IMG/VR virus record: IMGVR_UViG_3300009285_002455
Reading direction: 5' to 3' (one strand)
Origin: a virus
DNA length: 64,000 nucleotides
The notes under the pieces are model-generated. The model was given only the letters and a program-made list of their open reading frames with translations. It was not told the origin of the DNA and made no database searches. Made by a program: the position numbers and the translations under genes. Shown here one piece after another: positions 1-62,957 of this stretch. Each line of letters opens with the position of its first letter. Position 1 is the stretch's first letter.

Positions 1-14
1 GTACAGAAAGCCAA

Positions 15-3000
15 ATGGGTGCTTATATCAGTAAGCATGGTAAAGGCGCGTTAGATTTAGATGTGGGTATATCTAAATTACAGCCAGGTGCTTATGGTAA
101 AAAAGAAGAAGCTAGATACTCGTCTAGTATGGCAAAGGCAGTAGCTACCGCATCTAATTTGGAAGATGAGCTTAATCAGTTATATGAGGTATCTGGTTCT
201 GGTGCTTACGGTGAATTGGTAAAGACTTCTGCCGATAGATTAAAAAATTCACAGAAAGACGTGCAAGCTGTAACTGCAGCTATTGCTAATTACGAACCTC
301 TGGATATTAAATCAATACAAGATAGTATTGGTAAGCTTACTGAATTAACCACGGGTGACTTAGCCACAATGTCTCCAATACATACGCAAGTATTTAAAGA
401 TAGATCCTCAGCTAAAGATTTAATGCGTATGCGTGATGTTGTAGACTATTATACTACACTAGCGGGGCTGCCAGTAGTAGAGCCGTCAGTGCTACAAGAA
501 ATAGAGCTACTAGGTAAAAGCGAACTTAGTAAGATGGCTGAAACTAAATTTAAAGATCAAGGCTTAACTCCCGAAGAACTACAAACCAAAGTAGATGCAT
601 ATGTAGACGTATTTTCAGAAAAAATGAAGGCCTTATATTCACTAGATAGAGCTTTAAAAGTATTTAAAACTTCTAGTGCCTCTGGTATGGATGTGGCTAC
701 TATGTTACCCCCTGTCTCCTCAGGTAAAGTTAGGGGAACAACATATCGTTCCACCGCAGGTATAGAGGCGGCTAAAGTATCTTCTCCTATAATGGAAGCC
801 GGTATTTACGGGTCTGCAGGAGGGCCCCCGCCCCCGGCTACCCCTGGTATAACAACACCGGGTGCTGGTGTTCCAGGGGGACCATTTACTTTTACTGGCG
901 GTGCTTTAAATGTTCATCTACAAAGCATTGCTGCTGGTATAGGTTTATTTGTAGGAGACACCCCACAAGCTAAAACTCAGACAACTACTGAGCCTGCTAT
1001 CGATGTAGAACAGCTTAAAAAATGGTCTGCCCAAATAACAGGTGGCCACAATGAGCTTAGCGGTGCAACATATGCAACAATATATAGAGCCAGTGCTTTA
1101 GCCGGCGGCGGTTCCTATAAGAGTGGGTTTAAAAAAGAAGACTTCTCTGAAAAAGAATTAAATAGTCGTCAGATAGCTGCCATAGTGTCAGCAATGCGTG
1201 GAGAAAGTGACAACATTCCTAATGACTTCTTAGAAGCCTCTGCTCTTGTTGGTCAAGCCATACATGCTAAAATACAAAAAGATATAATATCTATGGACCC
1301 CACAGCTGCCATAGAACAATTTGTGGCTTTAACCACAAAGTCTGGCCCTATAACCGGGCATATAGATGTTGTAATGAAAGATGAAACTACTGGTGAAAAA
1401 TATCCTATGGATATAAAGACAGTAGGTGAGGGGGTTAAAAAAGCTATTGGAGAAGCCATACAAACTTCCGGTACATCTGATTTCCCAGAAGTTTACGCCA
1501 AACTCATTGAGAAAGGGGACAAACCCAGTCTAGCGGCCGCATATAAATTACTGGATGTGGCATCACAGTTAAATGTTTATATGACAGCCATTGGTGCAAC
1601 TAAAGGCGAGGCTAAGTATTATAGTAGCACGGGTAAGGGTGAAGATACCCCTGAAGTTGTGAAATTTAAACAAGACCCAGCCTTATTAGCTAAAGATGTG
1701 GATGCCGTAGCTAAAGCTAGAAGGTTTGCTGGTAAATTTAGAACCACAGGTAGTTTAGAGGAACAAACGGAGGCCGCAAAGAAGGCTAGTCCTTTAAATA
1801 TAAGTGCTTCTGATTTAAAGAGAATGTTAGATGAATCTTCAAAACATTTTGAATCTGTTAAAACTGCTGGCGGCGGTAGACAAAGGGCTGCTTCTTACAG
1901 ACCGATGACACCTAAAGAGAGTGAAGAGAAAATTAAGGGTTTTAAACTTGACGAAACCGATTCAATTAGTGATATAGACAAATTATATAGCCCTAAAATA
2001 GCCGCTGGTAAGGATGTATGGGCCGATTTAGAGAACTTCACCACATTCCATACAGCCGCCAAAGAATTCCAACGGCAAGTTCGTAACATCAACTATGAAG
2101 AAGAGCTTAATAGTCTCGAAAAAGTAAGTAAAGATTTATCCGACATAATTAGAGGCACAGGTAAAACTGGCCCAGATATGGATAGATTTAGAAAAGCAAC
2201 AGATAAATTTAAACAGCTAGCCACTGATCAAGGTGGACCTGAAGGTGAACGTAGAGCAGGAGCGCAATTAAATAAAGCTTGGAAATTGTATAGAATGGCG
2301 GAAGGAGATTACTACTTATCTCAAGCCAAGGAGGCAAAAAGGGCCTACGAAGCGGCTAGCTCCTCAAAAGATTTTGAGGCGGAAACCGCAAGTTATGGTA
2401 AGGCACAATCCGCTATATCAAGAATGCGAAAGTTTGTTAGTAGGGTAGCTGGTTCTAGAACAGACATTTACACAGAAGATAAAAAATTTGTAATGCCGGA
2501 AATGGCACGTAGACTAAATGTTTATCAAACACCAGGTGAGTTGGCTACTAAGGCTACAACACCATTAGGTGATGATAAACAACTACAATCAATGTTTGAA
2601 AATATAGTAAGTGATTTACAAAAAGACAGTGTGATGACCCCTGCTGTTGAAAAAGCACGTACAGCTGTATCTACAATTACTGGTTCCAATGTTAAAAGAG
2701 AAATGATAGACATGATGCAAAATGCCGAGATGCTAACTAGGATGGGCTCTGATGTTATGCATGCTTGGGATTTTGATCTTTTGGCTGAAAAATTAAGTAG
2801 GCTCCGCGCTTCTCTTGAACGTTACATGAAGTATAATCTAACGGACGATTTTGGAGCAGCTCAAAAGAAGAATTTAGAGACTGTCATAAAGTATTTAAAA
2901 TCCGTAGAGAACTCATACACCATGATTAACCAGTCTGCCAATAAAGACTGGGGTGAGGCAGGCACAGTGCCAGTTCCAAAATGGTTAGCGCCGAAAGAGC

Positions 3001-6000
3001 AACTGGCTATGCACACAAGTAATGTAGAAAAAGTAAAAGAGTATTTTGAGAAGCCTCAAGAATCTGGTGGTGCACGTGTAGGTGAGGTTAGATCTTATCC
3101 TATCAAAGTTCTGGATCAGACTGGGCAGGTTGTTCGTAATGTTGTGGTGGACTTTGCTAAGTATGGTAAATCACTAAGTGACATAACAATAAAAGAAAGA
3201 GATTTAGCCTCCGCTATGCAAGGATCTAATAGCGGATTTAGAGGTGCAATAGGGCGTGCTGTTAAATGGGGTGCTGCTTCTACCGTAGTGTACGGAGGTT
3301 TTGCGCAACTCAAACAAGCTATTAGTACCTTAGCTGAAATAGAGTATAGTTTAGCCACACTTAAAATGATGTTAAATCCTCTGTCTTCTGATATAAATGG
3401 TTTATCAGCGGCCGCGGTTACCTTCGCCAAACAATATGGTGTTGGTATAACAGATGTATTACAATCTATGAATGTTTTTGCACAGCAAGGTTTAACACAA
3501 GCAGAAATAATAGATAGAACTAAGGTATCTACCTTAGCTGCTAATGTTACTACATTAAAAGCATCAGAAGCTACTGAAGCTTTAACATCAGCCATGAAAA
3601 TTTACCAAGAAGAAGGTAATAGTGCTATGCGCTTTTTAGATGCTTGGAGTGAGGTTGAAGCCAAGAGCGCTATTACTGCTGGTGACTTAGCCAATGCTAT
3701 TCAAAAGTCCGCCTCGGCAGCCAAAATTGCTGGTGTTACTTTTGATCAATTAAATGGTATTGTTGCCGCTATCGGTTCAACTACAAGACAATCAGGTAAA
3801 GAAGTAGGTACTTCTCTTAGATTTATTTTACGTAGACTTTCTGCCGAAAAAGGGCCAGAGCAGCTGGGTAAATTAGGTATTCCTGTCATGGAATCTACTG
3901 GACAGTTAAGATCTGGTTTTAGTGTTTTAGATGATCTAAGCAAAAAATGGAAAGACCTTAGTAACGCCCAAAAATTGGCTACCTCCCAAGCACTTGGTGG
4001 TACCAGACAATATAACTCTCTCATAGCTTTAATGGATAACTGGGATCAAGCTTTACGTGCCACCAAAGAGAGTATGAATTCCAAAGGCTCCGCAGAAAGA
4101 CGTAATGCTGAATTAATGGGTACTTATAGAAAACAGCTCGAACAAACCAAAGTTGCTTTAGTAGAACTACAGATGTCTATCGGTAAAGTAGCTTTGCCGG
4201 CATTTAAAATAGGTTTAAGTGGAGTTAAAACATTTTTAGAAACACTGTCTGCTATACCTGATCCTATCAAAGCGGCCGGCGCTGCTTTTGTGGCCTTACT
4301 GACCTATATGACTAAGGGACAGCAACTAGCCGAATCCTTAGGTGACATGCTTGCTGGAGGTAAGGACTTTCTAGGTATATCTGGGGCCGGAGAACAATTT
4401 ACTAAAGAGTTAGCTAAAACTAAATATGAATTATTTGGTTTAGGCGGCGGTAAATTAGCCACTGCCGGTCTTAAAACATTAGGTAAATTTACTACTACGG
4501 ATGCTAGTGGCGGAAAGACTGACGTAACCAGAGGGACTAAATTATCAGATTTTCATTCCTCTTTTGGCAGGTTGTCCTTTAAACTACAAGAAGTAGGTAA
4601 AGTATTTAATAGTTTTGTTGCTGATAGTGTTTCTACCACAGGTAAAGGAATAGCCTCATTCGGGGCTGCCGGAAAAACAGTAGGGACTAAACTTAGTAGT
4701 ACCGCTGGTATAGGGGAGACTATTGAAACTATTAGAAAACGTAATAGTATGACCAAAGAAGACATAGAAAAAACAGTTAAAGAGCTGGGTATACATCAAG
4801 CACTAAAGAAATTAGTTTCTGGTGGTTTGGCCATGGGCGCCGAAGTAGCTGGTATGGGTTCCTATTTAGGAGGTATGGCTGTAAAAGGTTTTGGTGATTC
4901 ACTCGGTGATATAGGCAAAAAGTTAACTGAAAATTTAGCTACGGACGATACTTCCTTTATAGCCGCGGTTGCCCCATTACTAACCACAATAGCAGCATTA
5001 GTACCGGCAATAAAAGTACTAGGGGATCAATATGGTAGGATGACTCAATCTGCACAAGATTACGCAAATGCTATGTATAGTATGCGTAGTATTCAAGAAG
5101 ATAATCTTACTAATATTAAAAATATGGCGGCTTCCTATGATGTTTTACAAAGCAAAATAGAGGATTTAAATAAATTAAATGATCCCGCCACCAAAGAACG
5201 TAGAAAATCTTTAAACACTTATGAAGCTCCTATAATTACATTAGGTAGAGCACAAGAAGATGTAATAAGTTTAGCAAATCAATTAGCAGAATCTAATAGT
5301 AACCTGGTGTTAGGTTATGATAAAGTAGGCAATGCGGTGCTTAAAGCCAGCACTAATTTTGACGAGTATTTTAAAGTACTGGATAAATCCAGAACTAAAC
5401 AACTGGCGGAATCGGAAGTAGACGTGGCTTCCAAATTTATAGAGGATTTAACCAAAACAGGTGGGTCTGAAAACACTAAAAAAATGATTAAAGATATAGC
5501 GAGTGAGGTGCCTATTATAGGAGAAATGCTTGCTAAGGGTATTAAAGTGGCCCCCGCCAAAGCTATTGCTGAAGTAACCGCACAGTTAAACAATTTGCTA
5601 TCAATAAAAGCAAAATCGCCTATGTCTTCTGCTGTGGATAAAGATATTAAAAAATATCAAGAGACATTAAAGGCGCTTAGAAATGATTACGCGGCTACTT
5701 ATAAGGAATTTAGTAATGTATTAGGCAACATTAATACTAAGGGATTAGATCCAAATGAGATTGCTAAAATATTTGCTGACCCCAGATTAAAAGAAGGGTA
5801 TGATGTTATACTTAACATGGAACCCAGACTAAATATAGCCGGCCTTAAAGGTAAAATTAATTGGCAGGATGTTTTAGGGCAAACTGTTATGCAGCGTGCC
5901 CTGCCCTCTGCTAAATCATTAGATTTTACAAAAGAATTAACTAAGGGTAAATTAGAGTCCGCAGGTCTTTTTGAACGCCAAGGTAAAGTGCTTAATAACG

Positions 6001-9000
6001 ATATAGTACTATTTATGGATGACGTGGCTGCAAAGTATAATATGGCGGGCAAACAAGCAATAGTTAAACTCAAAGAAACCTCGGATGGTGTATTTGAGTG
6101 GGTTGCACAATACTTTAATACAAAAACACTAAAAGTGGAAGAGCGTGCTTTTGATAAAGACATGCAGCAATTAGTTGAAAACATCTTTCCTGCCAATCAT
6201 ATACAAGATGAGATCACAGACAAAATAGAGATACTTAATGAATTTGTAGCCGGCGCCGGCGCGGGTATTAGGGCCATATCTGCAAAAGATTTCAAAAAGG
6301 AATTTGATTTAGGGGAGCGCTTTTTTAGTGACATAGCAACAACCACTCTGCTACAATCTGGTAAAGGGTTTACTCCTACCGCTTCTACAGGCAAAGGTTT
6401 TGGTGAATCTCCATTCCAAAAATCATGGAAAAAAGATTTTGAAGAGTATTACGCTAAACCTATGATTAAATTTAGAAGTTACATGGAGGACTTAGATAAA
6501 TTAAAAGTAGAAGGTTTGGATGAAGGCAGTGTTACCATAGCTAATGACTTATATAAAGAGTTAGAAAACCTAACTACTATATTAAAAAATAATCAAGTGG
6601 TAATGCAATATAGAGCTGTATTGGCCGATTTAACTAAAACATTTGAATCTGGCAAAAGAGCAATTGAAGAAAACATAGCTGTTGAACGTAGCCGTCAAGA
6701 AGTATTTAAAGGCACCACAGGTTATTTAAAAGGTATATCTGAGGGATTAGACACTTTTGATACGGGCGGGCCTAAGTATAAAGACCTGACTGTTCAACAA
6801 CGTACTTTAATAGGCTCAGAGGATTACAGAAACTTAGCCGCTCAACTAAAAGAATTAGATATACAAAAACAAGGTGCGTCAGAGGGCATGTACTCCTCCG
6901 ATAAAGCTCTTGTGGCACTTGATAGCATAGCTGCTGTATCAAAAGGCTTTGGTTCTGTGCTAACTAAGGACGAAATGCAAAACTTTACTGAAACTGTTGC
7001 TAGAACAGGTGACACAGGGTACGCTGAATTAAAAATAGAAACCTCTAGGGTAGCTACTAATACTGCGGATACTGTTACTAAGCTTGAAGACATTTTAATG
7101 GCTTTAGGTAGTCCAGGGGAACTTGATAAACAGTTAGAAAAATATATGTCTGCTAGTTCACCACAAGATTTACTAACTGGACTAGAGCGTGTAGCTGAAA
7201 TGCGCGATAGAGCGTCAGCCACCGGCAATTCCGATATGGTGATAGAAGCCAATAAAGTTCTAGATGTTATGACTAAAAATTTAACATCTCAATTAGGGGT
7301 AGATAGAACACTTAAAGAAATAGGTAGCCAGAATGTTTTTGGTGCTAAAAACTACACAGCAACAGAAGCTTCTCAACGAATGTTTTCTGGTCTAGATTTC
7401 CGTGATTTTGTAACACAAATGAAGGATGTCGTACCAGAAGAAAGTAAGTGGTTTGGTTTAAAAACTGTTCCAAACAAACCAACGTTCACTGCAGATGTGG
7501 AAGCCATAAATAAATTACAAACAGCAAATCAACAAACACAGTTTATTGATGATAAAACTGTAATGAAAGCCACTGCCGCAGCCAGTGTTGCTTCCGCTTT
7601 TCAAAAAGCTGGCGAAAACGCAACAGTTAAGAAATTAGATGAACAGCTTCAAGTATTAAGGGCACAACTCGCGGCAGAAGAAGCCAAGCCCGCTGTTAAT
7701 CAAAATAAAGGGTTAATAGAAGACCTAAAAACACAAGAAAAAACACTTACTACATCCAGAGAAGATACCGCAGCAAAAGCTACTTTATATGGCGCTGTTA
7801 CTACTATGACTGCGTCAAAAACAGCAATTATGGAATTTGCTAAAAGTCTTGGCTTTGCGGACGACACTATAAAGAAACTAGGTGCAGGTACCGTAGCCAC
7901 TTATGCTGCTTTATTAGTTTTTAGTAAACTATTGGGAACAGATCTTTCAGAGGCCACTAAAAATTATGGTAAAGTGTTAAAAGATGTAGCCACTGGTGTA
8001 GCAAACACTGGTGAGGCACCCTCTTTATCACAGGCCATAAAACTTAAACGGGCTGAAAAAAACTTTTATGAAGACTATGAAAAAAATAAAACACAGTACG
8101 GTTTCGCTGATGGCGGCAGAGTGTTTGGTGAAGGTACTCCTACTTCTGATAGTATTAATGCAAAATTAAGTAAAGACGAGTATGTACTAGATGCTGCAAC
8201 TGCTAGACGCGCTGGTTATGCCAGATTGGATAAATTCAGTAAAACACATAATCCAGAAGATTTAACAGGTTTTGCTACTGGTGGTGCCGTTAAAAACAGT
8301 TTGATAGAAAGCAAAGACGAACTTAAAAACAAAGCCGATTTATTACGTAAAGTTAATGATATACTTAAAGATTACCCTGAGTTATCTGATGTACTTAAAG
8401 GGTCCGAGGAAATGGCTTTGGATGTATTAAAGGAAAAATATCCTGAGGTACATAAAGCTGTAACTACTTTGTCTAAAATTAAAGTAGGCAAGGGTGAAGA
8501 GGCCACTTTAAATTTACCAGATGATTTAAAAAAATTATTAGATGCTGTTAATTTTAAAATGGCTACTGGCGGTCCAATAGCGGGCGAAGGTACTGGTACA
8601 TCAGACGATATATTAGCTAGGGTGAGTAACGGTGAATATATAATCAAGGCCGACTCTGCCAAACATTTGGGTCAAAGTAAGCTAGACTACATTAATGAAT
8701 ATGGCAAATTACCAACTTTCGCCACAGGCGGTGCTGTTGCTGGCCCAATAACAGACCCAGACATTAATAGACCTGCACAAGTACTAGCCACAGCAGCTGC
8801 GGCTACTATGGCAGGTTATCTAGCCGAAAGTAATGAAAAACTTACTGAGATAGCAACAGCTTCTAAAAAATCTGCCGCTGAGTCCACCCTTATAGCGGAT
8901 TTGATACAGAAAAACACATCATCAGCACAAAAAATATTTAATACCCTTAATGAGCAGGCTATTAAAAATGCTACAACCGATAAAATACTTCAAGGAACAG

Positions 9001-12000
9001 AAGTAAAATCCAAAGTATTGGATGTTGATGCTGAAAAGAAAAAAGTGGAACAAGCCATAAAAGATATGAAAGAAGTCTATAAACAGCAGGCGCAAGTCAT
9101 AAACAAACAGGCCGCTGATATGCAAGAACAGATGCTTAAACTTGAAATGGCTGAAGAATTAGAAAAGGAATTAAATGATATGGCTGCCGCTATATCCAAT
9201 GTAGAAATAACAGCAAATGCTAAAAATAGGTTTAGTAAATTAGTGGAAGAGTCCATGACTTACGGTGTAAAAAGTTTTGTTAGGCCATCTTTTTGGTCCA
9301 GTAATTTCGCTGTACCTCAACCTGGTGGTTTATTAGGAGGTAAGTATAATCCACCCCAAGTTGACTTAGGTGTTAGAAGTACACGGGATATGACAACAGA
9401 ACAATATCTGCTATTTAAAGATAAGGAGCTGGTATCAAAAGCTAAAAATCTTTCAGAGGTAGGTAAAAACTTTTTTACTAATCTAGGAAGACTTTTCACT
9501 GATCTAGATTTTTTTGCTAAGGACCTTAATTTTGAATCAGTGGCCACCTTTATAAATAGTTTGGCTTCTATACAAGATCCTAGAAAAGGTGTTAAACTTG
9601 AAAAAGTATTTACAATAAATAAATACCAAAAGGCAGAAACTTCTTTTAAAGCATTAGAAAAGGCCCAAAGTAAAACAGATCTTATGCAGTCTAAGCTTAC
9701 TGAACTCTATATTGAAAAACAAGAATTAGACGCTTTGGATAAAACAGTAGGGTTAAGTAGTAAAGAAAAGAAGCGGTTTAAAAATGTGGATATTTTAATA
9801 GACGAGTACGAACATGCTATAAAAGGACAAGTTTCTAAAATAAAGAATATAAAAATAGATTTAGAGCCTGTAATAATTGAAGGGACCTTTAAGAAGGCTA
9901 GATCTGAACGGGCTAATACCGAATTAGTTGAAGATTTTTCTAGTATAACTAGATCAATTTCTCAATCTAAAACGTCAATGACTGCTGCCATGAATCCTGA
10001 ATTATCTGGTTTTAGAGGTGATTTGCAATTTAAACGTAAAGACGCCGAATTAAGTGATCAAGAATACTTTTTTAAATCATCACAAGGAACTACAAAAAAC
10101 ACGATAGATCAACTAAAATCGGCACAAGCTCTAACAGAAAATGTAAGTAAAAAAATAGCAGATAGAGAGCAATTAATAACAGATATCAGATTAAAGCTGT
10201 TAGATGCCGGCGATAAAGAGACCAATCAAACTAAGGCATATAAAGATGAAATATTAAAATTAAGTGATGAGACGTCTGATTTAACAGAAGACTTCGAAAC
10301 CCTTAAAAATAGTATGGAATCCTTAGGCAGTATAACGCAAACCGTGTTTGATACAGGTAAAAGTCTACGCGTATTTAATGAAAGTTTTAAATCTTTAAGC
10401 GTACAGGGTTTTAGTGCCGGATTAGAAGGTACTAGAAATCTTAAATTGGCCATGGATTCCCTGGTTGGTGCTAGCGGTCCTTTTGCTAAAAGAATGGTCA
10501 CACCTACACAGCAAATAGATGCTTTAATGGGTGGTGGTATATCTTTAAGCAAATTTGCTGATGAATTTGAAATAAGAACAGCTGATTTATATACACAACT
10601 ATTTTCTGGCAATCTTAAAGGTAATGATCTTCAGAAAGTTATTGACCAAATAACCCATATGCCACAGGAAAAGGCTAGGGTACGTGAAGAACAAGATTTG
10701 GTTAAGCAATTTCAAGGTTTAGACACTATGGTTAATGCCATAAATTCCATGGAAGATACTTTAATTGAAAGAATATCATTTGGTAATGAAGATGCCGGCA
10801 CAAAAGCTTACTATGCTGGGTCTTTAAAACAATTAGAGGAACTTAAAAATTCTCAAGCGACCTTCATAAAATCAGAAACTACTATTGGAGCAGTAAAAGA
10901 AAAAGCCAAAGCCCAGTATGGGGAAGGAACCATAGAATACCAGAGATACATGTCTCAATTTGGTGGTATGGCTGAAAGCACCAGAGCGGTGGCAATAACA
11001 CCAGAAGTAAAAGAGGGCTTTGCAAGAATACAACATGACCTTGAAAAAACTCTAATGAACTCTGATCCTGTGGTTAAAGAATTGATTAACATACAAAAGA
11101 TCTTAGAAACATTAGCTGAAAAACTAGGCGTTCCCTCCTCGGAGTTAAGACAGCTATTTAAAACTCCTGGAGAAACAGATAAACTACTTCCAACCCTAGA
11201 AACAGCAAAATTTCAATCGCCTGTACAAAAATATGTAAGTGAAGTGGAACAAAATTCTATGGCTGGTTTAGTGGCCGCTAACAAAGCCTTGGATGCTCTT
11301 TCTGTGCCTACGGGGAATTTGGTTATAGAATTAGGTAGAGTTATACCAAAGTTTGTAGAATATAACAATGCATTAGGCAATGCTATTGTTAATTTAACCA
11401 GCAGGGCAGTAGGTGCTGCCATTAAGGATATTAATATAGTTCCTCCTGGTGTAGCGCAAGAAAAAGCTGTTAAAGAAAAAGCTACATTTATTGGTACAAA
11501 AATGGCTGAGCAACAAGGTTTTGATGTTAACGATCCAATAATAAAAGCAAGGATAAACCAATTTGCAGCTGGACAGGCCATGTTTATTAGTGAACAAGAA
11601 CGTCAAAATGCGCGTAATAAACCATCTGTTTTTACAGATACCCCAACTAAGGATTTTGTTTCAAAAGGTACTTTAAGTTTAGGTGCATCTGCTCTGGCTG
11701 CTATGGGACCTGATATAGCCCTGCTTGCTGAATTTTTTATGGGGCCCCAGGCTGCAACACTTTTGACTGCGGCCCCATTAGCAGTTGGTGCTGGGGTAGA
11801 AGGGTACAATTTTGCTGCCCCAAAAGCAGACTACCTCATGTCTTTAAAAGAAACCAATGACCTACTAACTAAGGCAGAGAAGGATGCTGCATCACGTGGT
11901 GATTTATTTGAAAAACCCTCGCTGAATTTGCCTGATTTGGAGAACCTACACTTAGCGGATGACGCTTATTTTAAAGCACAAATAGAGGCACTTTATAATA

Positions 12001-14276
12001 ATACAACTCAACTACAAGAGTTAAATAAAGCTTTAAAGGATAAACCGACAGAGACTACTGCTGTCGATGCTGCTACACCTCTTGTTAAGGCTCGCGGGGG
12101 TTACATTACAGGTCCTGGTGGTCCAAGAGAGGATAAAGTTCCGGCTATGCTTAGTCCAGGAGAATACGTAATACGCGCCCATGCGGCCCAGAAACTTGGT
12201 TATGATACCCTGGACTATATAAATAAAAAAGGTATTATGCCAGGCCTGGCTGACGGCGGCAACGTGTTTTCTGCGTCCGGCGCACAGGACATCCTTACCA
12301 AGCGCAGAAAACAACTAGAAGCCATCATGAAGGAAAATAACCTGGCTGACGGCGGCAACGTGTTTTCTGCGTCCGGCGCACAGGACATCCTTACCAAGCG
12401 CAGAAAACAACTAGAAGCCATCATGAAGGAAAATAACCTGGCTGACGGCGGCAACGTGTTTTCTGCGTCCGGCGCACAGGACATCCTTACCAAGCGCAGA
12501 AAACAACTAGAAGCCATCATGAAGGAAAATAACCTGGCTGACGGCGGTAGTATACCCATGTTTACAGAGAAGGAGGTATTAACTCTGGCTAAAGCAAGGG
12601 CCTCAGTTTTAAATGAAGAGGAACAATTAAGAAAAGGAGTTAAAACTGAAGACTTATTAGGAGCTACTACTTCAAGAGTGTCTTCTGAAGAACAACAACT
12701 TATGACTCAAATGGCAGAAAGAAAAACTACTTTTGGTGAATCTTACAATGCAGGAAGAGTGGGCGCCGCCGAAGAGTATTTTACTGCCACGCGAGATATA
12801 AAGGAAAACGTTAGACGTTTAGCAGCAAATGATGTGGGCACCGAAAAACAAACAAATACTATGACTTTTACACCTAACTACTTATATAAAGGTGCTAAGA
12901 TGTCAAGTATGACCGCAGCAGCAGGCCCAGCTTATCCAGAAGTAGAGCAACTTAGAAATTATCTTGAAGATCCAACTATCATGCGTAATGCCTTATCCCA
13001 TGGTATTGATAAAGAGACAGGTAAGCCTAATGCTGGCTATCTTCCGGAAGAATATGTATGGCAAGCTAGACAGTCATTAAATAAATTTGATAAATTAGTT
13101 ACATCTGGTAATACATTACAAAACAGTCCGGCGCTCCGGGCGTTAAGACACGTACTTGCTGATGTAGAGGATCGTATAGCCTTAACCTCCAATATAGGAA
13201 GGGTTATAGGACTTAGGGATACTGGTAAATTAGATGCAATGTTGCCTATGGGCGGTGCTAAAATTAGTGAAACTGATGAGGGCACATTTTGGAATTATGC
13301 CGGTAATTTGGCAGCCAAACAAAACATGCCAAAAGAGTTGGAGGGTTTATTAACAACAAATGAATTTAGAGCTCTGGCCGTTAAGAGTATTAGTGAAGGT
13401 GACAGCGCACGTGTTAAAACTATTATTGAGGACTATTTAAAGACACGTAATTTAGATGAAAATAGTAATCTTTTAAGCGACACTTTTAAAGGTAATAAGC
13501 AACTTGAAGGTGGAAGATTCATGCCTATTATGCATGACGGCGGCGTAACGAGATCTACTGGTCCTCATTATTTAGAGAAAGGTGAGGTAGTATTGCCAAG
13601 ACGCTTTGCTGATGGTGGCCTTGTTAATAGTGAACTTACTACCAATACAATTACTAATGCCCAACAAAAAAGTATTACACTTACTTGGGATGAAAGTAAA
13701 AAATTACAGGTAGAAGATAGAGTATTACGTGTAGAGGACAAAGAGTTAAAGTTGGCTGATATAGCTCCCTTAAAAGTAGAGGATAAAGTATTTGATGTTA
13801 AATTGGACGATAACGGTATTACTGATAAACTAACTTCTGTAATAAGTAGTATACCAGATAAGATATCTTTGGATTCTTCAAACGTTAAACTAGATACATC
13901 TAATCTAGAAACTATGTTTAAGAACCTGGCGGACTCCATAAATAATACTAAATCCGTAGGTGCTGATAGTACAATTTTAGATACCGCATTAGAAAGTATA
14001 GCTTTTGTTAAAGAGCAAACTGATGAACAAATACACATAATAGATTCTAAGTTAACTAATTTACAGGAATCTTTTGGAAAGGATGTACAGGCTGAGATAA
14101 ATGTACGAATTGCGGAAGTTAAAAAAGATATTTTGAATAATAATTCAAAATTAATTGACTCTTATATAAATAGGCAAAGGACCGACATTAGTAAATTAAA
14201 GTTTGAACTAACATCTATTGATGGGCAATTAAAACGTTTAATGACACTAGTGTATGCTAATAGGAATATAGGCTAA
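15..14276 (+). CDS. giant tail tape-measure protein (probably 5'-truncated by window edge)
   Basis: 4753-aa Ala/Lys/Glu-rich helical ORF. TP901-type tape-measure core at ~3243-4300 (GAIGRAVKWG...AVTFAKQYG...ANVTTLKASEATEALTSAM...FDQLNGIVAAIGSTTRQSGKEVGTSLRFI...LGGTRQYNSLIALMDNW). Several FAxGG/SxxEYV modules typical of TMP C-termini. The frame is open upstream to base 3 (ACA GAA AGC CAA ATG), so the true start may lie outside the window. Confidence 0.88.
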   Translation: MGAYISKHGKGALDLDVGISKLQPGAYGKKEEARYSSSMAKAVATASNLEDELNQLYEVSGSGAYGELVKTSADRLKNSQKDVQAVTAAIANYEPLDIKSIQDSIGKLTELTTGDLATMSPIHTQVFKDRSSAKDLMRMRDVVDYYTTLAGLPVVEPSVLQEIELLGKSELSKMAETKFKDQGLTPEELQTKVDAYVDVFSEKMKALYSLDRALKVFKTSSASGMDVATMLPPVSSGKVRGTTYRSTAGIEAAKVSSPIMEAGIYGSAGGPPPPATPGITTPGAGVPGGPFTFTGGALNVHLQSIAAGIGLFVGDTPQAKTQTTTEPAIDVEQLKKWSAQITGGHNELSGATYATIYRASALAGGGSYKSGFKKEDFSEKELNSRQIAAIVSAMRGESDNIPNDFLEASALVGQAIHAKIQKDIISMDPTAAIEQFVALTTKSGPITGHIDVVMKDETTGEKYPMDIKTVGEGVKKAIGEAIQTSGTSDFPEVYAKLIEKGDKPSLAAAYKLLDVASQLNVYMTAIGATKGEAKYYSSTGKGEDTPEVVKFKQDPALLAKDVDAVAKARRFAGKFRTTGSLEEQTEAAKKASPLNISASDLKRMLDESSKHFESVKTAGGGRQRAASYRPMTPKESEEKIKGFKLDETDSISDIDKLYSPKIAAGKDVWADLENFTTFHTAAKEFQRQVRNINYEEELNSLEKVSKDLSDIIRGTGKTGPDMDRFRKATDKFKQLATDQGGPEGERRAGAQLNKAWKLYRMAEGDYYLSQAKEAKRAYEAASSSKDFEAETASYGKAQSAISRMRKFVSRVAGSRTDIYTEDKKFVMPEMARRLNVYQTPGELATKATTPLGDDKQLQSMFENIVSDLQKDSVMTPAVEKARTAVSTITGSNVKREMIDMMQNAEMLTRMGSDVMHAWDFDLLAEKLSRLRASLERYMKYNLTDDFGAAQKKNLETVIKYLKSVENSYTMINQSANKDWGEAGTVPVPKWLAPKEQLAMHTSNVEKVKEYFEKPQESGGARVGEVRSYPIKVLDQTGQVVRNVVVDFAKYGKSLSDITIKERDLASAMQGSNSGFRGAIGRAVKWGAASTVVYGGFAQLKQAISTLAEIEYSLATLKMMLNPLSSDINGLSAAAVTFAKQYGVGITDVLQSMNVFAQQGLTQAEIIDRTKVSTLAANVTTLKASEATEALTSAMKIYQEEGNSAMRFLDAWSEVEAKSAITAGDLANAIQKSASAAKIAGVTFDQLNGIVAAIGSTTRQSGKEVGTSLRFILRRLSAEKGPEQLGKLGIPVMESTGQLRSGFSVLDDLSKKWKDLSNAQKLATSQALGGTRQYNSLIALMDNWDQALRATKESMNSKGSAERRNAELMGTYRKQLEQTKVALVELQMSIGKVALPAFKIGLSGVKTFLETLSAIPDPIKAAGAAFVALLTYMTKGQQLAESLGDMLAGGKDFLGISGAGEQFTKELAKTKYELFGLGGGKLATAGLKTLGKFTTTDASGGKTDVTRGTKLSDFHSSFGRLSFKLQEVGKVFNSFVADSVSTTGKGIASFGAAGKTVGTKLSSTAGIGETIETIRKRNSMTKEDIEKTVKELGIHQALKKLVSGGLAMGAEVAGMGSYLGGMAVKGFGDSLGDIGKKLTENLATDDTSFIAAVAPLLTTIAALVPAIKVLGDQYGRMTQSAQDYANAMYSMRSIQEDNLTNIKNMAASYDVLQSKIEDLNKLNDPATKERRKSLNTYEAPIITLGRAQEDVISLANQLAESNSNLVLGYDKVGNAVLKASTNFDEYFKVLDKSRTKQLAESEVDVASKFIEDLTKTGGSENTKKMIKDIASEVPIIGEMLAKGIKVAPAKAIAEVTAQLNNLLSIKAKSPMSSAVDKDIKKYQETLKALRNDYAATYKEFSNVLGNINTKGLDPNEIAKIFADPRLKEGYDVILNMEPRLNIAGLKGKINWQDVLGQTVMQRALPSAKSLDFTKELTKGKLESAGLFERQGKVLNNDIVLFMDDVAAKYNMAGKQAIVKLKETSDGVFEWVAQYFNTKTLKVEERAFDKDMQQLVENIFPANHIQDEITDKIEILNEFVAGAGAGIRAISAKDFKKEFDLGERFFSDIATTTLLQSGKGFTPTASTGKGFGESPFQKSWKKDFEEYYAKPMIKFRSYMEDLDKLKVEGLDEGSVTIANDLYKELENLTTILKNNQVVMQYRAVLADLTKTFESGKRAIEENIAVERSRQEVFKGTTGYLKGISEGLDTFDTGGPKYKDLTVQQRTLIGSEDYRNLAAQLKELDIQKQGASEGMYSSDKALVALDSIAAVSKGFGSVLTKDEMQNFTETVARTGDTGYAELKIETSRVATNTADTVTKLEDILMALGSPGELDKQLEKYMSASSPQDLLTGLERVAEMRDRASATGNSDMVIEANKVLDVMTKNLTSQLGVDRTLKEIGSQNVFGAKNYTATEASQRMFSGLDFRDFVTQMKDVVPEESKWFGLKTVPNKPTFTADVEAINKLQTANQQTQFIDDKTVMKATAAASVASAFQKAGENATVKKLDEQLQVLRAQLAAEEAKPAVNQNKGLIEDLKTQEKTLTTSREDTAAKATLYGAVTTMTASKTAIMEFAKSLGFADDTIKKLGAGTVATYAALLVFSKLLGTDLSEATKNYGKVLKDVATGVANTGEAPSLSQAIKLKRAEKNFYEDYEKNKTQYGFADGGRVFGEGTPTSDSINAKLSKDEYVLDAATARRAGYARLDKFSKTHNPEDLTGFATGGAVKNSLIESKDELKNKADLLRKVNDILKDYPELSDVLKGSEEMALDVLKEKYPEVHKAVTTLSKIKVGKGEEATLNLPDDLKKLLDAVNFKMATGGPIAGEGTGTSDDILARVSNGEYIIKADSAKHLGQSKLDYINEYGKLPTFATGGAVAGPITDPDINRPAQVLATAAAATMAGYLAESNEKLTEIATASKKSAAESTLIADLIQKNTSSAQKIFNTLNEQAIKNATTDKILQGTEVKSKVLDVDAEKKKVEQAIKDMKEVYKQQAQVINKQAADMQEQMLKLEMAEELEKELNDMAAAISNVEITANAKNRFSKLVEESMTYGVKSFVRPSFWSSNFAVPQPGGLLGGKYNPPQVDLGVRSTRDMTTEQYLLFKDKELVSKAKNLSEVGKNFFTNLGRLFTDLDFFAKDLNFESVATFINSLASIQDPRKGVKLEKVFTINKYQKAETSFKALEKAQSKTDLMQSKLTELYIEKQELDALDKTVGLSSKEKKRFKNVDILIDEYEHAIKGQVSKIKNIKIDLEPVIIEGTFKKARSERANTELVEDFSSITRSISQSKTSMTAAMNPELSGFRGDLQFKRKDAELSDQEYFFKSSQGTTKNTIDQLKSAQALTENVSKKIADREQLITDIRLKLLDAGDKETNQTKAYKDEILKLSDETSDLTEDFETLKNSMESLGSITQTVFDTGKSLRVFNESFKSLSVQGFSAGLEGTRNLKLAMDSLVGASGPFAKRMVTPTQQIDALMGGGISLSKFADEFEIRTADLYTQLFSGNLKGNDLQKVIDQITHMPQEKARVREEQDLVKQFQGLDTMVNAINSMEDTLIERISFGNEDAGTKAYYAGSLKQLEELKNSQATFIKSETTIGAVKEKAKAQYGEGTIEYQRYMSQFGGMAESTRAVAITPEVKEGFARIQHDLEKTLMNSDPVVKELINIQKILETLAEKLGVPSSELRQLFKTPGETDKLLPTLETAKFQSPVQKYVSEVEQNSMAGLVAANKALDALSVPTGNLVIELGRVIPKFVEYNNALGNAIVNLTSRAVGAAIKDINIVPPGVAQEKAVKEKATFIGTKMAEQQGFDVNDPIIKARINQFAAGQAMFISEQERQNARNKPSVFTDTPTKDFVSKGTLSLGASALAAMGPDIALLAEFFMGPQAATLLTAAPLAVGAGVEGYNFAAPKADYLMSLKETNDLLTKAEKDAASRGDLFEKPSLNLPDLENLHLADDAYFKAQIEALYNNTTQLQELNKALKDKPTETTAVDAATPLVKARGGYITGPGGPREDKVPAMLSPGEYVIRAHAAQKLGYDTLDYINKKGIMPGLADGGNVFSASGAQDILTKRRKQLEAIMKENNLADGGNVFSASGAQDILTKRRKQLEAIMKENNLADGGNVFSASGAQDILTKRRKQLEAIMKENNLADGGSIPMFTEKEVLTLAKARASVLNEEEQLRKGVKTEDLLGATTSRVSSEEQQLMTQMAERKTTFGESYNAGRVGAAEEYFTATRDIKENVRRLAANDVGTEKQTNTMTFTPNYLYKGAKMSSMTAAAGPAYPEVEQLRNYLEDPTIMRNALSHGIDKETGKPNAGYLPEEYVWQARQSLNKFDKLVTSGNTLQNSPALRALRHVLADVEDRIALTSNIGRVIGLRDTGKLDAMLPMGGAKISETDEGTFWNYAGNLAAKQNMPKELEGLLTTNEFRALAVKSISEGDSARVKTIIEDYLKTRNLDENSNLLSDTFKGNKQLEGGRFMPIMHDGGVTRSTGPHYLEKGEVVLPRRFADGGLVNSELTTNTITNAQQKSITLTWDESKKLQVEDRVLRVEDKELKLADIAPLKVEDKVFDVKLDDNGITDKLTSVISSIPDKISLDSSNVKLDTSNLETMFKNLADSINNTKSVGADSTILDTALESIAFVKEQTDEQIHIIDSKLTNLQESFGKDVQAEINVRIAEVKKDILNNNSKLIDSYINRQRTDISKLKFELTSIDGQLKRLMTLVYANRNIG
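1080..1720 (+). other. PD-(D/E)XK (RecB/Cas4-like) nuclease domain inside the tape-measure protein
   Basis: Ordered motifs IYRASAL (1080), GQAIH (1251), IEQF (E at 1314), GHID (D at 1365), DIKT (D 1410, K 1416) and QLNVY (1566). The order matches the stand-alone nuclease at 58869 (ISATRI, GTAVH, LETPF, GAID, DYKT, QLSMY). Confidence 0.75.
12245..12547 (+). repeat. perfect in-frame tandem repeat, 3 x 96 bp + 15 bp
   Basis: The unit starting cctggctgacggcggcaacgtg recurs at 12245, 12341 and 12437, with a partial copy at 12533. It encodes LADGGNVFSASGAQDILTKRRKQLEAIMKENN. 50 of 96 bases are G+C. Confidence 0.97.
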
Positions 14277-58869: not shown

Positions 58870-60029
58870 TGGTAAATAATGAGGGCATTAAAATAAGTGC
58901 TACACGCATAAGTACTTTTTTGCAATGTAAGCAGAAATACTGGTTTAACTATTATGATAAATTACCTAAAATAGATAATCCGGTATTTAAATTAGGTACA
59001 GCTGTTCACATTGCCTTGGAGTTGGCTGGAAATATCTGGCGGGAAAAAGAGAAGTTCACTAAAAAAGATAAAGAAACTATTATTAATAAGTTTAAAGAAG
59101 TCTCTGTAAAAGAAGGAATTGATGATTTTTCCGTACACCAAACAGGTATAGAATTAGTAACTAATAGAATAAATGATTTTATACATGAAGGGCACAAAAT
59201 AATAAGCTTAGAAACTCCCTTTGGTTATAAAGGTGGTGTAGATGTAATCACCAAAGAAGGTGTGCCGTTGTTGGGCGCTATTGATAAAGTATTACAGGTA
59301 GATGAAGACACCATTCTAATTGTGGACTATAAAACATCTAAAACTGCACCTACACCGGATCAACTAAAAACAGACAAACAGTTGTCTATGTATGATTTGG
59401 TAGCCAGTATATTGTGGCCTGGAAAGCGTATTATAGTTAGCCTTGACTTGTTAAAACATGAGATGTTATATTCTTATCGTACACCAGAAGAACGGGCTGC
59501 TTTTTCTGAATATCTTAGATTAGTGTACGATTCCATGCTTTCCTTGAAAGAGCAGGATGTAAAAGCCACAATAAACACATTTTGTCCTTGGTGTGATTTT
59601 AGAGAATATTGTAATGCGTATAAAGAGGCATATACAAATTCGAACGGCAAATTTCAAGAAGCGTATCGTTTAGATAACAGTGCTTTGGTCGATGAGTGGC
59701 AACAAGTTAAAAAGATGAAAAAAATATATGAAATGCGCGAGAAAGAACTATCTTTACTTCTTATGGATCGTATAAAAACTACTGGTATAAATGTACAAGT
59801 AGACGACAAAGAAGTTTATGTTAGACAAAATAGTAGAGCAACTTACGATATTAGCGCGGTTAAACAAATAGTACCACAAGAGTATCTATTGAATATGGTA
59901 TCTTTAAATAAATCAGATATTGAAAAATATATGGATAAGAACCCCGCAGCCAAGGCTAAAATAGTAGATAGCATGACTGTGAATTTTACAACACCTTTTT
60001 TAGATGTACGTAAAATAAAAAATAAATGA
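58869..60029 (+). CDS. PD-(D/E)XK exonuclease, RecB/AddB/Cas4-like
   Basis: ISATRISTFLQC, GTAVH, GAIDKV, IVDYKT, QLSMY. The 1+3 Cys staple (QC...CPWCDFREYC) is typical of Fe-S-containing AddB/Cas4 nucleases. Confidence 0.85.
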   Translation: MVNNEGIKISATRISTFLQCKQKYWFNYYDKLPKIDNPVFKLGTAVHIALELAGNIWREKEKFTKKDKETIINKFKEVSVKEGIDDFSVHQTGIELVTNRINDFIHEGHKIISLETPFGYKGGVDVITKEGVPLLGAIDKVLQVDEDTILIVDYKTSKTAPTPDQLKTDKQLSMYDLVASILWPGKRIIVSLDLLKHEMLYSYRTPEERAAFSEYLRLVYDSMLSLKEQDVKATINTFCPWCDFREYCNAYKEAYTNSNGKFQEAYRLDNSALVDEWQQVKKMKKIYEMREKELSLLLMDRIKTTGINVQVDDKEVYVRQNSRATYDISAVKQIVPQEYLLNMVSLNKSDIEKYMDKNPAAKAKIVDSMTVNFTTPFLDVRKIKNK

Positions 60030-60377
60030 AAAGACATACAATTGACTTTATAAAAGCACAGTTTGAAAAGTATGGTTACACACTTATTGATGACATTTAT
60101 ATAAACGCAAGCACTAAATTGTGGTGCCTGGAAAGATAAGATTTATAAAGAATCGATAAAATATAGAGATAATAACGTTTGTAGAAATCCTTACTGTTTT
60201 GGTATAACTAAGGAGTTAACTATCCATCATATAAATTATGACAAGGAGGATTGCAGACCTATTAATTTAATAACTCTATGTAGAAGTTGTAATTCTCGTG
60301 CTAATACTGATAGAATTTGGCACGAGAACTGGTATTCAATTTTAATGCGTAATCGTGGAAGATTACTAAACAATTAA
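60026..60377 (+). pseudogene. degenerate free-standing HNH endonuclease (internal deletion plus frameshift)
   Basis: Frame 1 (60026-60139): MKRHTIDFIKAQFEKYGYTLIDDIYINASTKL..., matching the N-terminal repeat of the 20399 HNH. Frame +1 (60120-60377, no start codon): CGAWKDKIYKESIKYRDNNVCRNPYC...LTIHHINYDK...NLITLCRSCNSRAN. Confidence 0.85.
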
Positions 60378-60386
60378 GGAGTTTCT

Positions 60387-61937
60387 ATGGGAAAAAAGAT
60401 TAAAATTTTATGTTATATGGACACCCCCTCCTGTAAATAATGTGCAGCTTTACATAGCAATATGTACCGAATAACTACGAGAATTCAGGGGAACTCCTAA
60501 CGTCAAGTCGAGGACAATCCTGAGCCAAGCCTCTTTATAGAGGAAGGTGCAACGACTATTCCATATAAGGAAGTACACCCAAGCGGGTGGAAGCACGTAG
60601 CATCCCAAGTGGATGATGATATAGTCTCAACTTGCATGGAAACATGCAGCAGCCCAAGAAGCGGTATAAGAAGTAGCGTTCTTATATGAAGATATTTGGC
60701 AACAGGTTTTGCAACAGTCAGCCGTAATGTTTTAGAAGCGTTGTATAAAACGGGTAGATATGACATCGAAGTGTTGGGTATAAATTACTGGGGAGATCCA
60801 CATGATTTTCCATATAAGATTTGGCCGGTAGGTAATAATGCGGAAAGAGATCCCTACGGTCGTAAAAAGATAGTTAATATGATTCCTAAAATGGATTTTG
60901 ATATTCTATTTTTTATGCAGGACAGTTTTATTTTGGATTTTTTACCTGAGTTGATTCCACATCTTAAAAAGAATAGGGAGACGCCGTTTAAATCCGTGGT
61001 GTATTTTCCCATTGATGGTACACCTAAGCCAGAGTGGATAAAAAATGTTAGTTTCTGTGATGAAGTAATTACTTTCGCTAACTTTGGTAGAAAGCTATGT
61101 CAGGAAACATACCCAATTGTGGGTGATATGTCTGTAATTCCTCATGGGGTTAATATCAATGAATACAAACCATTACCTAAGGATGAAGTAGCTGATTTTA
61201 GAAAACGTTACTTTGGTCGTCATGCTGATAAATTTATTTACATGAACCTAAATAGAAATCAGCAACGTAAGGATATTCCTAGGACTATCCAAGCATTCCA
61301 TGAGTTACGTAAAAAAGAACCAAATACTTTATTATATCTGCATATGGCTAAACAAGATCAGGGATGGAATCTGCCAGAAGTATGTAGAGCGTATGATTTT
61401 AGTTTAACCGATGACGTCATATTTCCTCAAAATTTTGGGCCTAATCAAGGCTATCCGAGAGAAATAGTTAATATGCTGTATAACTGTGTTGATTGCGTTG
61501 TTAGCGCAAGTCTTGGTGAAGGGTGGGGGCTTTCATGGATAGAAGCAATGGCCGCTAAAACACCCGTTATTATGCCCAGAAACACAGCAATGATAGAAAA
61601 TATTACTGAGGATGTGGGCTACCTTGTAAAAAGCGGTACTAACCCCAGTCTATGGACAGTACTTCCTTATGACAACGAAGTAAGACGCCCATTAGTTGAT
61701 GTAGAAGATCTAATCGACAAGATGCTACATGTGTATAATAATTATGAAGAGGCCATGACTAAGGCCGAGCAGGCGTATAAATTTGTTACAGGTACCCTAG
61801 ATTGGCAAACAGCAGTTGGTAATACTTGGGTTAAAACTTTTGACGCTGTATCTAAATCAATGCTTGAACAAAAAAGTAAAGTGGCAGAAATGTTAGCAAC
61901 ACAGACCACCAACGTCATAAACTCAGAAACTTTTTAA
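60387..61937 (+). CDS. GT4-family (GT-B) glycosyltransferase, spliced: exon 1 60387-60434, exon 2 60699-61937 (428 aa)
   Basis: AAGGAG RBS and ATG at 60387 give MGKKIKILCYMDTPSC, which joins in frame to ATGFATVSRNVLEAL. Later motifs VIPHGVN, NRNQQRKDIP and EGWGLSWIEAMA (EX7E). The track's TTG start at 60696 is the last codon of the intron. Confidence 0.88.
60435..60698 (+). ncRNA. group I self-splicing intron (IA2-like, ORF-less, 264 nt)
   Basis: 5' exon ends in U and intron ends in G. P1 CUGU/GCAG with U.G pair; P2 TACATA-GCAA-TATGTA; P3 CTACG/CGTAG; P element GAATTCAGGGGAA; Q AATCCTGAGC; R GGTGCAACGACTA; S ATGATATAGTCT; P7.1, P7.2 and P8 hairpins; P9 TGCATG-GAAA-CATGCA; P9.2 TATAAGAA/TTCTTATA. 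Confidence 0.93.
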
Positions 61938-61941
61938 TAAC

Positions 61942-61965
61942 AAAGAGGGGCTTAGTCCCCTTTTT
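61942..61965 (+). terminator. probable Rho-independent terminator
   Basis: AAAGAGGGG-CTTAGT-CCCCTTTTT immediately after the glycosyltransferase stop. Confidence 0.65.
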
Positions 61966-61990
61966 GCTGCTTAGCTATAAGGATAGTAAA

Positions 61991-62152
61991 ATGGAAGAAA
62001 TGCTTATACTTAAACCGGAGCAAGTACAAATTGATGAAAAAGAAATAGAAGAAGCATATAGCAACACAACCGTAGAGTACGCGTGTGATCTTTGTAAAAG
62101 ACTATATTCTAAAAGTTTAAAATTTTGCCCATTCTGTGGTTTTGGTGGATAG
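61991..62152 (+). CDS. small Zn-ribbon protein
   Basis: AAGGA RBS then ATG 61991. CDLC...CPFC motif, 53 aa. Confidence 0.55.
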   Translation: MEEMLILKPEQVQIDEKEIEEAYSNTTVEYACDLCKRLYSKSLKFCPFCGFGG

Positions 62153-62162
62153 AGGTGACACT

Positions 62163-62957
62163 ATGTTAAGAGTTAAACTACTAGATGTTTCAGCTAATGC
62201 TGAGAAATTACTATTTGCTGCCGGTAGACAGTGTTACTCCGAAGGATGGGTAGGAGACTCCTGGCAAGAAGACGAGGACGGCTTTGTGTCTATTACAGAT
62301 AACAAAGATGGTCATTTGTGTACGGACAAAGAAATAGAGGGGTTGATAAACCACTTATTTAAATCAGGTCACACAAGTGTTCTCGAACATGTAAAATTTA
62401 CATTTGCTATTGACGGTATATCCCGCGCGGATAGCCATCAACATGTACGTCACCGCATGGCTAGCTATTCCCAGCAGTCCCAACGGTATGTGGCTAATGG
62501 TGGAGAGTTTGATATCAATAATTTTGTCATTCCACCCTCTATAAATAAGCATGCTGTTGCTAAGCAAATTTATATCGATGCCTTGGAGTATATACAGCAA
62601 GCATATAATGAACTCAAAGAATTGAGCATCAAGAGTGAGGATGCGCGTTACCTTATGCCTAATGCTGCTATCACAAGATTAGTGACAACTAAAAATTGTG
62701 TGAGCTTAATACATTTTTTCGGTTTACGCTGCTGTACATTAGCGCAATGGGAAATTCGTAATGTAGCCAATGAGATGCTGGCTTTATGTAAGGAAGCACT
62801 ACCAGTAGTTTTTAAAAATGTTGGTCCTAAATGTCAACAAGCCGGCTACTGTTCAGAAAATAAAGCACGTAGTTGTGGTAAATACCCCACCAAAGAGGAG
62901 GTCCTCGCTGGTTACACTATGTGGAAAACTTCTTTGGAGAAACAAGATGAAGAATAG
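62163..62957 (+). CDS. thyX: flavin-dependent thymidylate synthase
   Basis: GHTSVLEH; signature RHRMASYSQQSQRY; EDARYLMPNA; LRCCTLAQWEIR. GAGGTG RBS supports ATG 62163. Confidence 0.95.
   Translation: MLRVKLLDVSANAEKLLFAAGRQCYSEGWVGDSWQEDEDGFVSITDNKDGHLCTDKEIEGLINHLFKSGHTSVLEHVKFTFAIDGISRADSHQHVRHRMASYSQQSQRYVANGGEFDINNFVIPPSINKHAVAKQIYIDALEYIQQAYNELKELSIKSEDARYLMPNAAITRLVTTKNCVSLIHFFGLRCCTLAQWEIRNVANEMLALCKEALPVVFKNVGPKCQQAGYCSENKARSCGKYPTKEEVLAGYTMWKTSLEKQDEE

Follow-up and report, generated by a model that had tools for sequence, protein, structure and literature searches.

A gene for a GT4 glycosyltransferase (GT) that is split by a group I intron without an open reading frame (ORF) was found in a 64,000-nucleotide (nt) stretch of the IMG/VR virus record IMGVR_UViG_3300009285_002455, the whole of which is referred to below as the window (Table 1). 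The short first exon ends at T60434, from where the frame continues as AAA TAA into the insert (in-frame stop TAA at 60438-60440), and the long open frame that reopens at 60699 reads ATGFATVSRN.... Excision of the insert joins TCCTGT to GCAACA and restores ...YMDTPSC-ATGFATVSRN... (the hyphen marks the junction) within a product of 428 amino acids (aa), and a one-base shift of either site breaks the frame or alters invariant residues. The Rfam covariance model of group I introns (RF00028) matched over its full length (model positions 1-253) at 60425-60649 on the plus strand with 83.0 bits (E 1.3e-19), above its gathering score of 50 bits, and no Rfam match other than RF00028 was found in either the 64-kb window or the whole 104,299-nt record. 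The insert is a real group I intron, far beyond chance, with a G+C content of 43% (36% for the window). Two minus-strand ORFs within it (52 and 87 aa) have no family support and were taken as mechanical; with 264 nt, the intron is too short for an endonuclease gene. Mechanical gene calling places the start of exon 2 at TTG 60696, inside the intron (P0001, 413 aa); no Shine-Dalgarno-like sequence was seen before this codon, whereas exon 1 is preceded by AAGGAG.

Table 1. Features of the interrupted glycosyltransferase locus, in window positions
Feature	Position	Strand	Remarks
N-terminal fragment of decayed free-standing HNH homing-endonuclease gene	60026..60139	+	37-aa ORF; start of a CapR-like module, then stop
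C-terminal HNH catalytic part, pseudogene	60105..60377	+	other frame, no start codon; stop 60375-60377
Ribosome-binding site of exon 1	60376..60381	+	AAGGAG, read from the sequence; ATG 60387 lies 5 nt downstream
Exon 1 of GT4 glycosyltransferase	60387..60434	+	16 codons, MGKKIKILCYMDTPSC; beta-strand 1 and most of the beta1-alpha1 loop
ORF-less group I intron, IA2-like	60435..60698	+	264 nt; RF00028 match; terminal G60698
P1	60431..60447	+	exon CUGU and intron AAA paired with internal guide UGUGCAG
P7	60554-58/60622-26	+	GACUA/UAGUC
P7.1	60559-62/60569-72	+	UUCC/GGAA
P7.2	60576-80/60585-89	+	CACCC/GGGUG; compensatory C-G to U-A change
P3, 3′ strand	60594-600	+	enclosed by P7
P8	60601-05/60611-15	+	enclosed by P7; carries compensatory changes
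Exon 2 of glycosyltransferase	60699..61937	+	412 codons and stop

Exon 2 alone was used for the homologue search, exon 1 not being assumed, and 1051 homologous proteins were returned. Apart from a few calls truncated at the N-terminus, the 120 homologues listed extend 10-45 residues further upstream, reading ...KIK[VIL]L.Y.D[ST]P[ST]C-ATGF[GAS]TVSRN..., and the joined exons of the window are gapless and colinear with more than 100 intronless homologues at ...PSC-ATGF...; P0074 and P0089 also have LLC[YF][LM]DTPSC. The DNA of intronless alleles reads ...TG[TC]-GC[ACGT]AC... at the insertion point. The exact boundaries and restored N-terminus put forward in the original prediction, made from the letters of the window, are thus borne out by intronless alleles that possess the exon-1 peptide and read straight through the junction. 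About 98% of homologous GT genes lack the intron. It recurs at the identical codon boundary in L007 (IMG/VR UViG_3300037692_000137, 234 kb; intron 90-92% identical, GT protein 90%) and at the identical site in L002/L003 (ENA scaffolds of 124 and 19 kb; intron 84-86% identical, GT 70%). Strong purifying selection acts on the spliced coding sequence, with an omega of 0.05 between the window and L007 at a synonymous divergence (dS) of ~1.1; exon 1 alone gives an omega of 0.14, and in both L007 and L002 exon 1 keeps its frame with mostly synonymous changes. The introns of the window and L007 are 91.6% identical, yet 58% of synonymous sites differ. The GT tree groups the intron-bearing alleles with the intronless L004 and L006 in a single, well-supported clade of five; since intron-bearing and intronless alleles are mixed in this clade, the intron was gained or lost at least twice there.

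An exact 23-mer junction scan of IMG/VR returned the L007 contig only, and a megablast of the locus against phage records gave no match. A metagenome scan with a 20-mer from the intron 5′ end yielded 17 loci, all rejected as chance matches (a JAESGT01 repeat or unrelated DNA) and none with this intron. The JAESGT01 assembly (L017-L033) holds at least 15 copies of a short repeat ending in GGTTGGGAGGGGTTAAAATAATGTGCAGCTTTACAGAGAATTGGTAT, which shares 20 nt with the intron 5′ end by chance and looks like an independent dispersed repeat, possibly of cyanobacterial type. The first 68 nt of a 1330-nt contig (L034, Logan SRR29340318) align to the intron 3′ end (P9, the 3′ hairpin and the terminal ...AAUG), and its exon resumes at TTTGG, 9 nt downstream of the window 3′ splice site. 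A homologous intron placed after GGT is more likely than the alternative, in which three invariant codons are missing; the 5′ half of the intron is absent from the contig, and a protein search with P0079 found no longer contig of the shifted-intron allele.

Thirteen helices were placed by hand in the intron RNA, and their pairs were counted on a three-way alignment (window, L007 and L002). In P1, the exon CUGU pairs with GCAG of the guide and the wobble U60434.G60444 marks the 5′ splice site; P1 with this wobble, and likewise the terminal G60698, is unchanged in all three intron-bearing alleles, whose first exon invariably ends in CCTGT, a stretch that is variable in intronless alleles. The UGU at 60441-60443, just 5′ of the guide, is able to pair with GCA of exon 2 as a candidate 3-bp P10. 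Besides the helices of Table 1 we found P2 with a GCAA loop, P3, P4, P5, P6/P6a, P9 with a GAAA loop and a 3′ hairpin. Standard pairing occurs in 212 of the 216 cells (98%) given by 72 modelled pairs in three alleles: 57 pairs are invariant, 11 are changed on both sides, three on one side and one includes a non-pair. The 11 compensatory pairs lie in P2, P6 (two), P6a, P7.2, P8 (two), P9 (three) and the 3′ hairpin, and take up 22 of the 27 variable paired columns; coming from three sequences, this covariation lends qualitative rather than statistical support. Minimum free energy folding of the intron alone gave a z of -2.5 and, as expected, missed the P3/P7 pseudoknot, so that the covariance model and covariation were relied on instead. 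The model match, the comparative alleles and the covariation all agree with the group I intron and the helices named in the original prediction.

The covariance model treats as an insertion 32 nt that separate the P7 5′ strand from the P3 3′ strand, and these nucleotides fold into P7.1 and P7.2. Hairpins in this place are the mark of subgroups IA1 and IA2 in particular. Over ~130-200 nt, the intron core is 70-78% identical at the nucleotide level to introns of Staphylococcus, Aeromonas, Alteromonas, Pseudoalteromonas, Escherichia and Pseudomonas phages, whose host genes, where annotated, encode lysin, terminase or DNA polymerase. P7.1 and P7.2 are among the peripheral features that define group I intron subgroups (PMC3984707). 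Judged by the two extra hairpins, of which P7.2 carries a compensatory change, and with the similarity to phage introns serving as a proxy for curated subgroup models, the intron fits the phage IA2 type, as had been predicted. Phage introns of this type (T4 td, nrdB and nrdD, the Staphylococcus Twort-like introns and those of DNA polymerase, lysin and terminase genes) share with it the P7.1/P7.2 core and an in-frame stop soon after the 5′ splice site, whereas the present intron differs in its GT4 glycosyltransferase host gene and its uncultured groundwater phage.

Exon 2 matches Pfam Glycos_transf_1 (PF00534; 48.2 bits, cut-off 26.4), as well as Glyco_trans_1_4 and GT4-conflict, and PHROG 2170 (glycosyltransferase), and its EGWGLSWIE is the GT4 E-x7-E motif. 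An AlphaFold (AF2) model of P0003, an intronless homologue with 74% identity, reached a predicted local distance difference test score (pLDDT) of 84.5 and a predicted template modelling score (pTM) of 0.83; in it, residues 5-12 form beta-strand 1, residues 13-18 a loop and residues 19-33 helix 1. By this model the intron is placed between C16 and A17, within the beta1-alpha1 loop of the N-terminal Rossmann domain, where T18, G19 and F20 are invariant; exon 1 corresponds to the first strand and loop of a GT-B fold, in line with the original prediction, and a product begun at the internal TTG would be without the central strand of the Rossmann domain. In a Foldseek search with the P0003 model and in a profile search alike, chlorovirus B736L (3oy2) was the top match and BshA, PimB′, MshA and other GT4 enzymes came next, with a Foldseek probability of 1.00 for each of these four. 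The GT-B fold is common to the host protein, chlorovirus NY-2A B736L (PDB 3oy2) and bacterial BshA, PimB′ and MshA, at only 14-19% identity.

The GT gene lies in a DNA-metabolism module, within a conserved gene block of the order DnaJ, RuvC, PD-(D/E)XK, GT, ThyX and second GT. The ThyX of the window (62136-62957, 273 aa) is without an insert. In L002 (4282-6156) the ThyX beside the GT is 624 aa in length, its Thy1 domain being split by an insert with a LAGLIDADG domain (31.5 bits), which is probably an intein that contains a homing endonuclease. A 62-aa ORF (61964-62152) of the window, situated between its GT and ThyX genes and carrying a C-terminal CxxC...CxxC zinc ribbon (weak Pfam Zn_ribbon_15 match), overlaps the GTG start of ThyX. 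Far upstream, a single open frame of more than 4750 codons (3-14276) runs off the window 5′ edge; CheckV rates the 104-kb record as 39% complete, and this low completeness suggests a jumbo phage.

On the upstream side, the PD-(D/E)XK gene ends at 60029, and the 357 nt from there to exon 1 are absent from L004 and L006, the nearest intronless relatives. L007 and L002 have an intact gene in this space (229 and 298 aa, respectively), with repeated CapR-like zinc-finger modules followed by an HNH motif, and the window retains its remains. The 37-aa ORF can be aligned with the module ...FxKEGYTL...YIN.K.KL that L007, L002 and L010 carry in their intact homologues. The second fragment scores below threshold with Pfam HNH_3/HNH and is 86% identical at the nucleotide level to the 3′ end of the L007 HNH gene; ~340 nt of the middle part of that gene are missing from the window. 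From the end of the HNH gene to the 5′ splice site the distance in the window is 57 nt. The remnant region is identical in a second assembly from another Joint Genome Institute sample (L035), a 68-kb contig of run X1 spans the stretch with 0 differences, and about nine studies contribute 18 runs, from groundwater or soil, in which nearly all words of the stretch are present; because these sources agree, the gene was broken by decay and not by an assembly error.

A survey of 80 IMG/VR loci with this GT (L036-L115) found the intron in only one, the L007 contig, and a free-standing endonuclease gene in the space between PD-(D/E)XK and GT in 17. Eleven of these genes (including that of the L007 contig) are of the CapR-HNH type, five combine CapR with a Vsr/MTES_1575-type nuclease and one is an unrelated HNH gene. 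This intergenic spot is a homing-endonuclease hotspot; the same observation also covers L008, L010 and L012. Each of the three intron-bearing alleles shows a CapR-HNH gene no more than 60 nt away from exon 1, whole in L007 and L002 and reduced to a remnant in the window. Seven of the eight HNH-bearing lineages (all but L083/84) either carry the intron or depart from the consensus at a residue of the CATGFG motif next to the insertion point. An association of HNH presence with substitutions at the GF[G] codon, striking in the raw counts, was dropped after tree contrasts.

In layout, the locus resembles a homing pair: an ORF-less intron and an adjacent free-standing homing-endonuclease gene, the latter dead in the window. 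In phage T4, MobE mobilises the nrdB intron in trans, the intron's own I-TevIII being defunct (Wilson & Edgell 2009, PMC2790892). In both cases a conserved gene is interrupted in its 5′ part by a group I intron that encodes no working nuclease, and a free-standing HNH-family gene lies immediately upstream, between the host gene and its neighbour; breakage of an intron-less allele by the nuclease could then lead to co-conversion of the intron. The present case differs in that the intron is wholly without an ORF, the gene it interrupts encodes a glycosyltransferase and not a ribonucleotide reductase, the nuclease family carries CapR-like DNA-binding modules, the free-standing nuclease is the dead one and mobility is a prediction from sequence. 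The psbA intron of cyanophage S-PM2 and the free-standing F-CphI form a case of 'collaborative homing' (Zeng, Bonocora & Shub 2009, as related in PMC6083498 and PMC3984707), in which, according to the passages on it in these two papers, the intron interrupts the nuclease target and thereby protects its own genome. F-CphI, however, is of the Endo VII type and not HNH, and many relatives of the present phage have the nuclease without the intron. CapR-like modules fused to a Vsr-like nuclease, which differs from the HNH found here, form a large homing-endonuclease group in phage introns (PMC12350094).

Because the split gene is under strong constraint beside a well-kept RNA, we infer that the intron splices in vivo; from the sequence comparisons it almost certainly does. 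The transcript would fold into the P1-P9 core, exogenous guanosine would attack after U60434, held in P1 by the U.G wobble, and the freed 3′-OH of exon 1 would attack after the terminal G60698, giving the joined exons described above. The ligated mRNA would encode the 428-aa enzyme, and translation of unspliced RNA would halt two codons into the intron. Splicing would be obligatory for the enzyme, because unspliced RNA stops early and a product of exon 2 alone is without beta-strand 1. That the upstream CapR-module HNH endonuclease spread or kept the intron, via trans or collaborative homing, has roughly even chances. The nuclease gene would later have been destroyed here by deletion and a frame break, leaving an intron that is immobile but still splices; the intron-nuclease pair of this genome is in any case past its mobile phase. 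Overall, we consider it very probable that a functional ORF-less IA2-type intron lies between codons 16 and 17 of the GT4 gene, the homing part of this reading being evenly poised.

Several observations weigh against this reading. In P3, a position that is U.G in both relatives is an A.A mismatch in the window (60480/60595), and the RF00028 score of the window intron is lower than that of L002 (83 versus 106.3 bits), which together may mean somewhat weaker folding of the window allele. The run searches found no RNA libraries holding the locus; reads of X20 represented only intron cores of other organisms, X1 gave the full DNA with 0 differences, and the lack of a spliced joint in X20, X21, X22 and X1 is uninformative either way. 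On the homing side, an endonuclease gene occupies the spot in 16 of the 79 intronless IMG/VR alleles, so that the nuclease does not depend on the intron, and HNH presence was not significantly associated with CATGFG substitutions on the GT tree (independent contrasts, sign test, median p 0.63).

A splicing-dead relic in a GT that is a pseudogene, or is made from the internal TTG 60696 as a 413-aa protein, would account for the P3 mismatch, the model score below that of L002, the decay of the adjoining HNH gene and the automatic gene calls that begin at this TTG (P0001). Such a relic is nevertheless highly improbable in view of the omega of 0.05 over the spliced coding sequence, the frame of exon 1, preserved through synonymous changes at a dS of ~1.1, and the 11 compensatory pairs of the intron; translation from the TTG would, moreover, leave the Rossmann core without beta-strand 1 and would start without the Shine-Dalgarno-like sequence that exon 1 possesses. 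The original prediction had held that splicing would gate expression of the enzyme. Splicing is needed for the full-length protein, and the in-frame TAA at 60438-60440, soon after the 5′ splice site, decouples translation from the intron, as would suit a gate that times or tunes GT expression during infection; nothing, however, indicates regulation: no ligand-sensing or alternative-structure element was found, the gene works without an intron in ~98% of its homologues and the pattern of presence and absence within one clade fits a selfish element. A regulatory role is very unlikely.

The relation of a functional, splicing intron to its neighbour is more finely balanced. The two may be independent tenants of a spot that is merely an endonuclease hotspot with targets elsewhere, the intron having arrived by reverse splicing or by means of its own long-lost endonuclease and only hitch-hiking nearby, and we rate this explanation at somewhat less than an even chance. 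It accords with the absence of the intron from 16 of the 17 endonuclease-bearing alleles among the 80 surveyed, with the three nuclease types found at the spot (CapR-HNH, CapR-Vsr/MTES_1575 and other HNH) and with the non-significant result on the tree. It sits less well with the CapR-HNH gene or remnant present in three of three independent intron-bearing alleles and missing from the closest intronless ones, L004 and L006, and with the finding that every HNH-bearing lineage except L083/84 has the intron or a non-consensus motif. If intron and nuclease are instead linked by homing, the CapR-HNH family might recognise the DNA for the invariant CATGFGTV loop, with lineages escaping self-cleavage either by the intron or by amino-acid substitutions in the loop (G to A/S, C to S/T), and with the shifted intron of L034 as a third outcome; we regard this proposal as tentative and rather unlikely. 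If it is true, ~90 natural alleles form a readable series of an arms race between nuclease, intron and target in an enzyme active-site loop.

Mechanism and subgroup are textbook, and so are the lack of an ORF, the early in-frame stop, the insertion in an invariant motif and the free-standing HNH gene next door; the locus is a well-supported new example of a known selfish element with no new mechanism. The usual hosts of phage introns are genes for DNA polymerases, ribonucleotide reductases or terminases, together with nucleotide-metabolism genes (PMC3984707, PMC12350094). To judge by titles and abstracts in the literature on group I introns, glycosyltransferases and phages, in which no phage glycosyltransferase hosting a group I intron appears, such a host gene does seem to be unreported so far, in keeping with the original view that it is unusual.

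[quoted passage not shown] A start at the intronic TTG drops the first beta-strand from the predicted protein. Public protein sets contain the same error (P0001, P0004), and annotation of this large group of uncultured phages needs to take introns into account. To our knowledge, trans and collaborative homing rest on very few characterised cases, and the natural series found here, with the intron present or absent, the nuclease intact, decayed or absent and three types of nuclease, could serve to test them.

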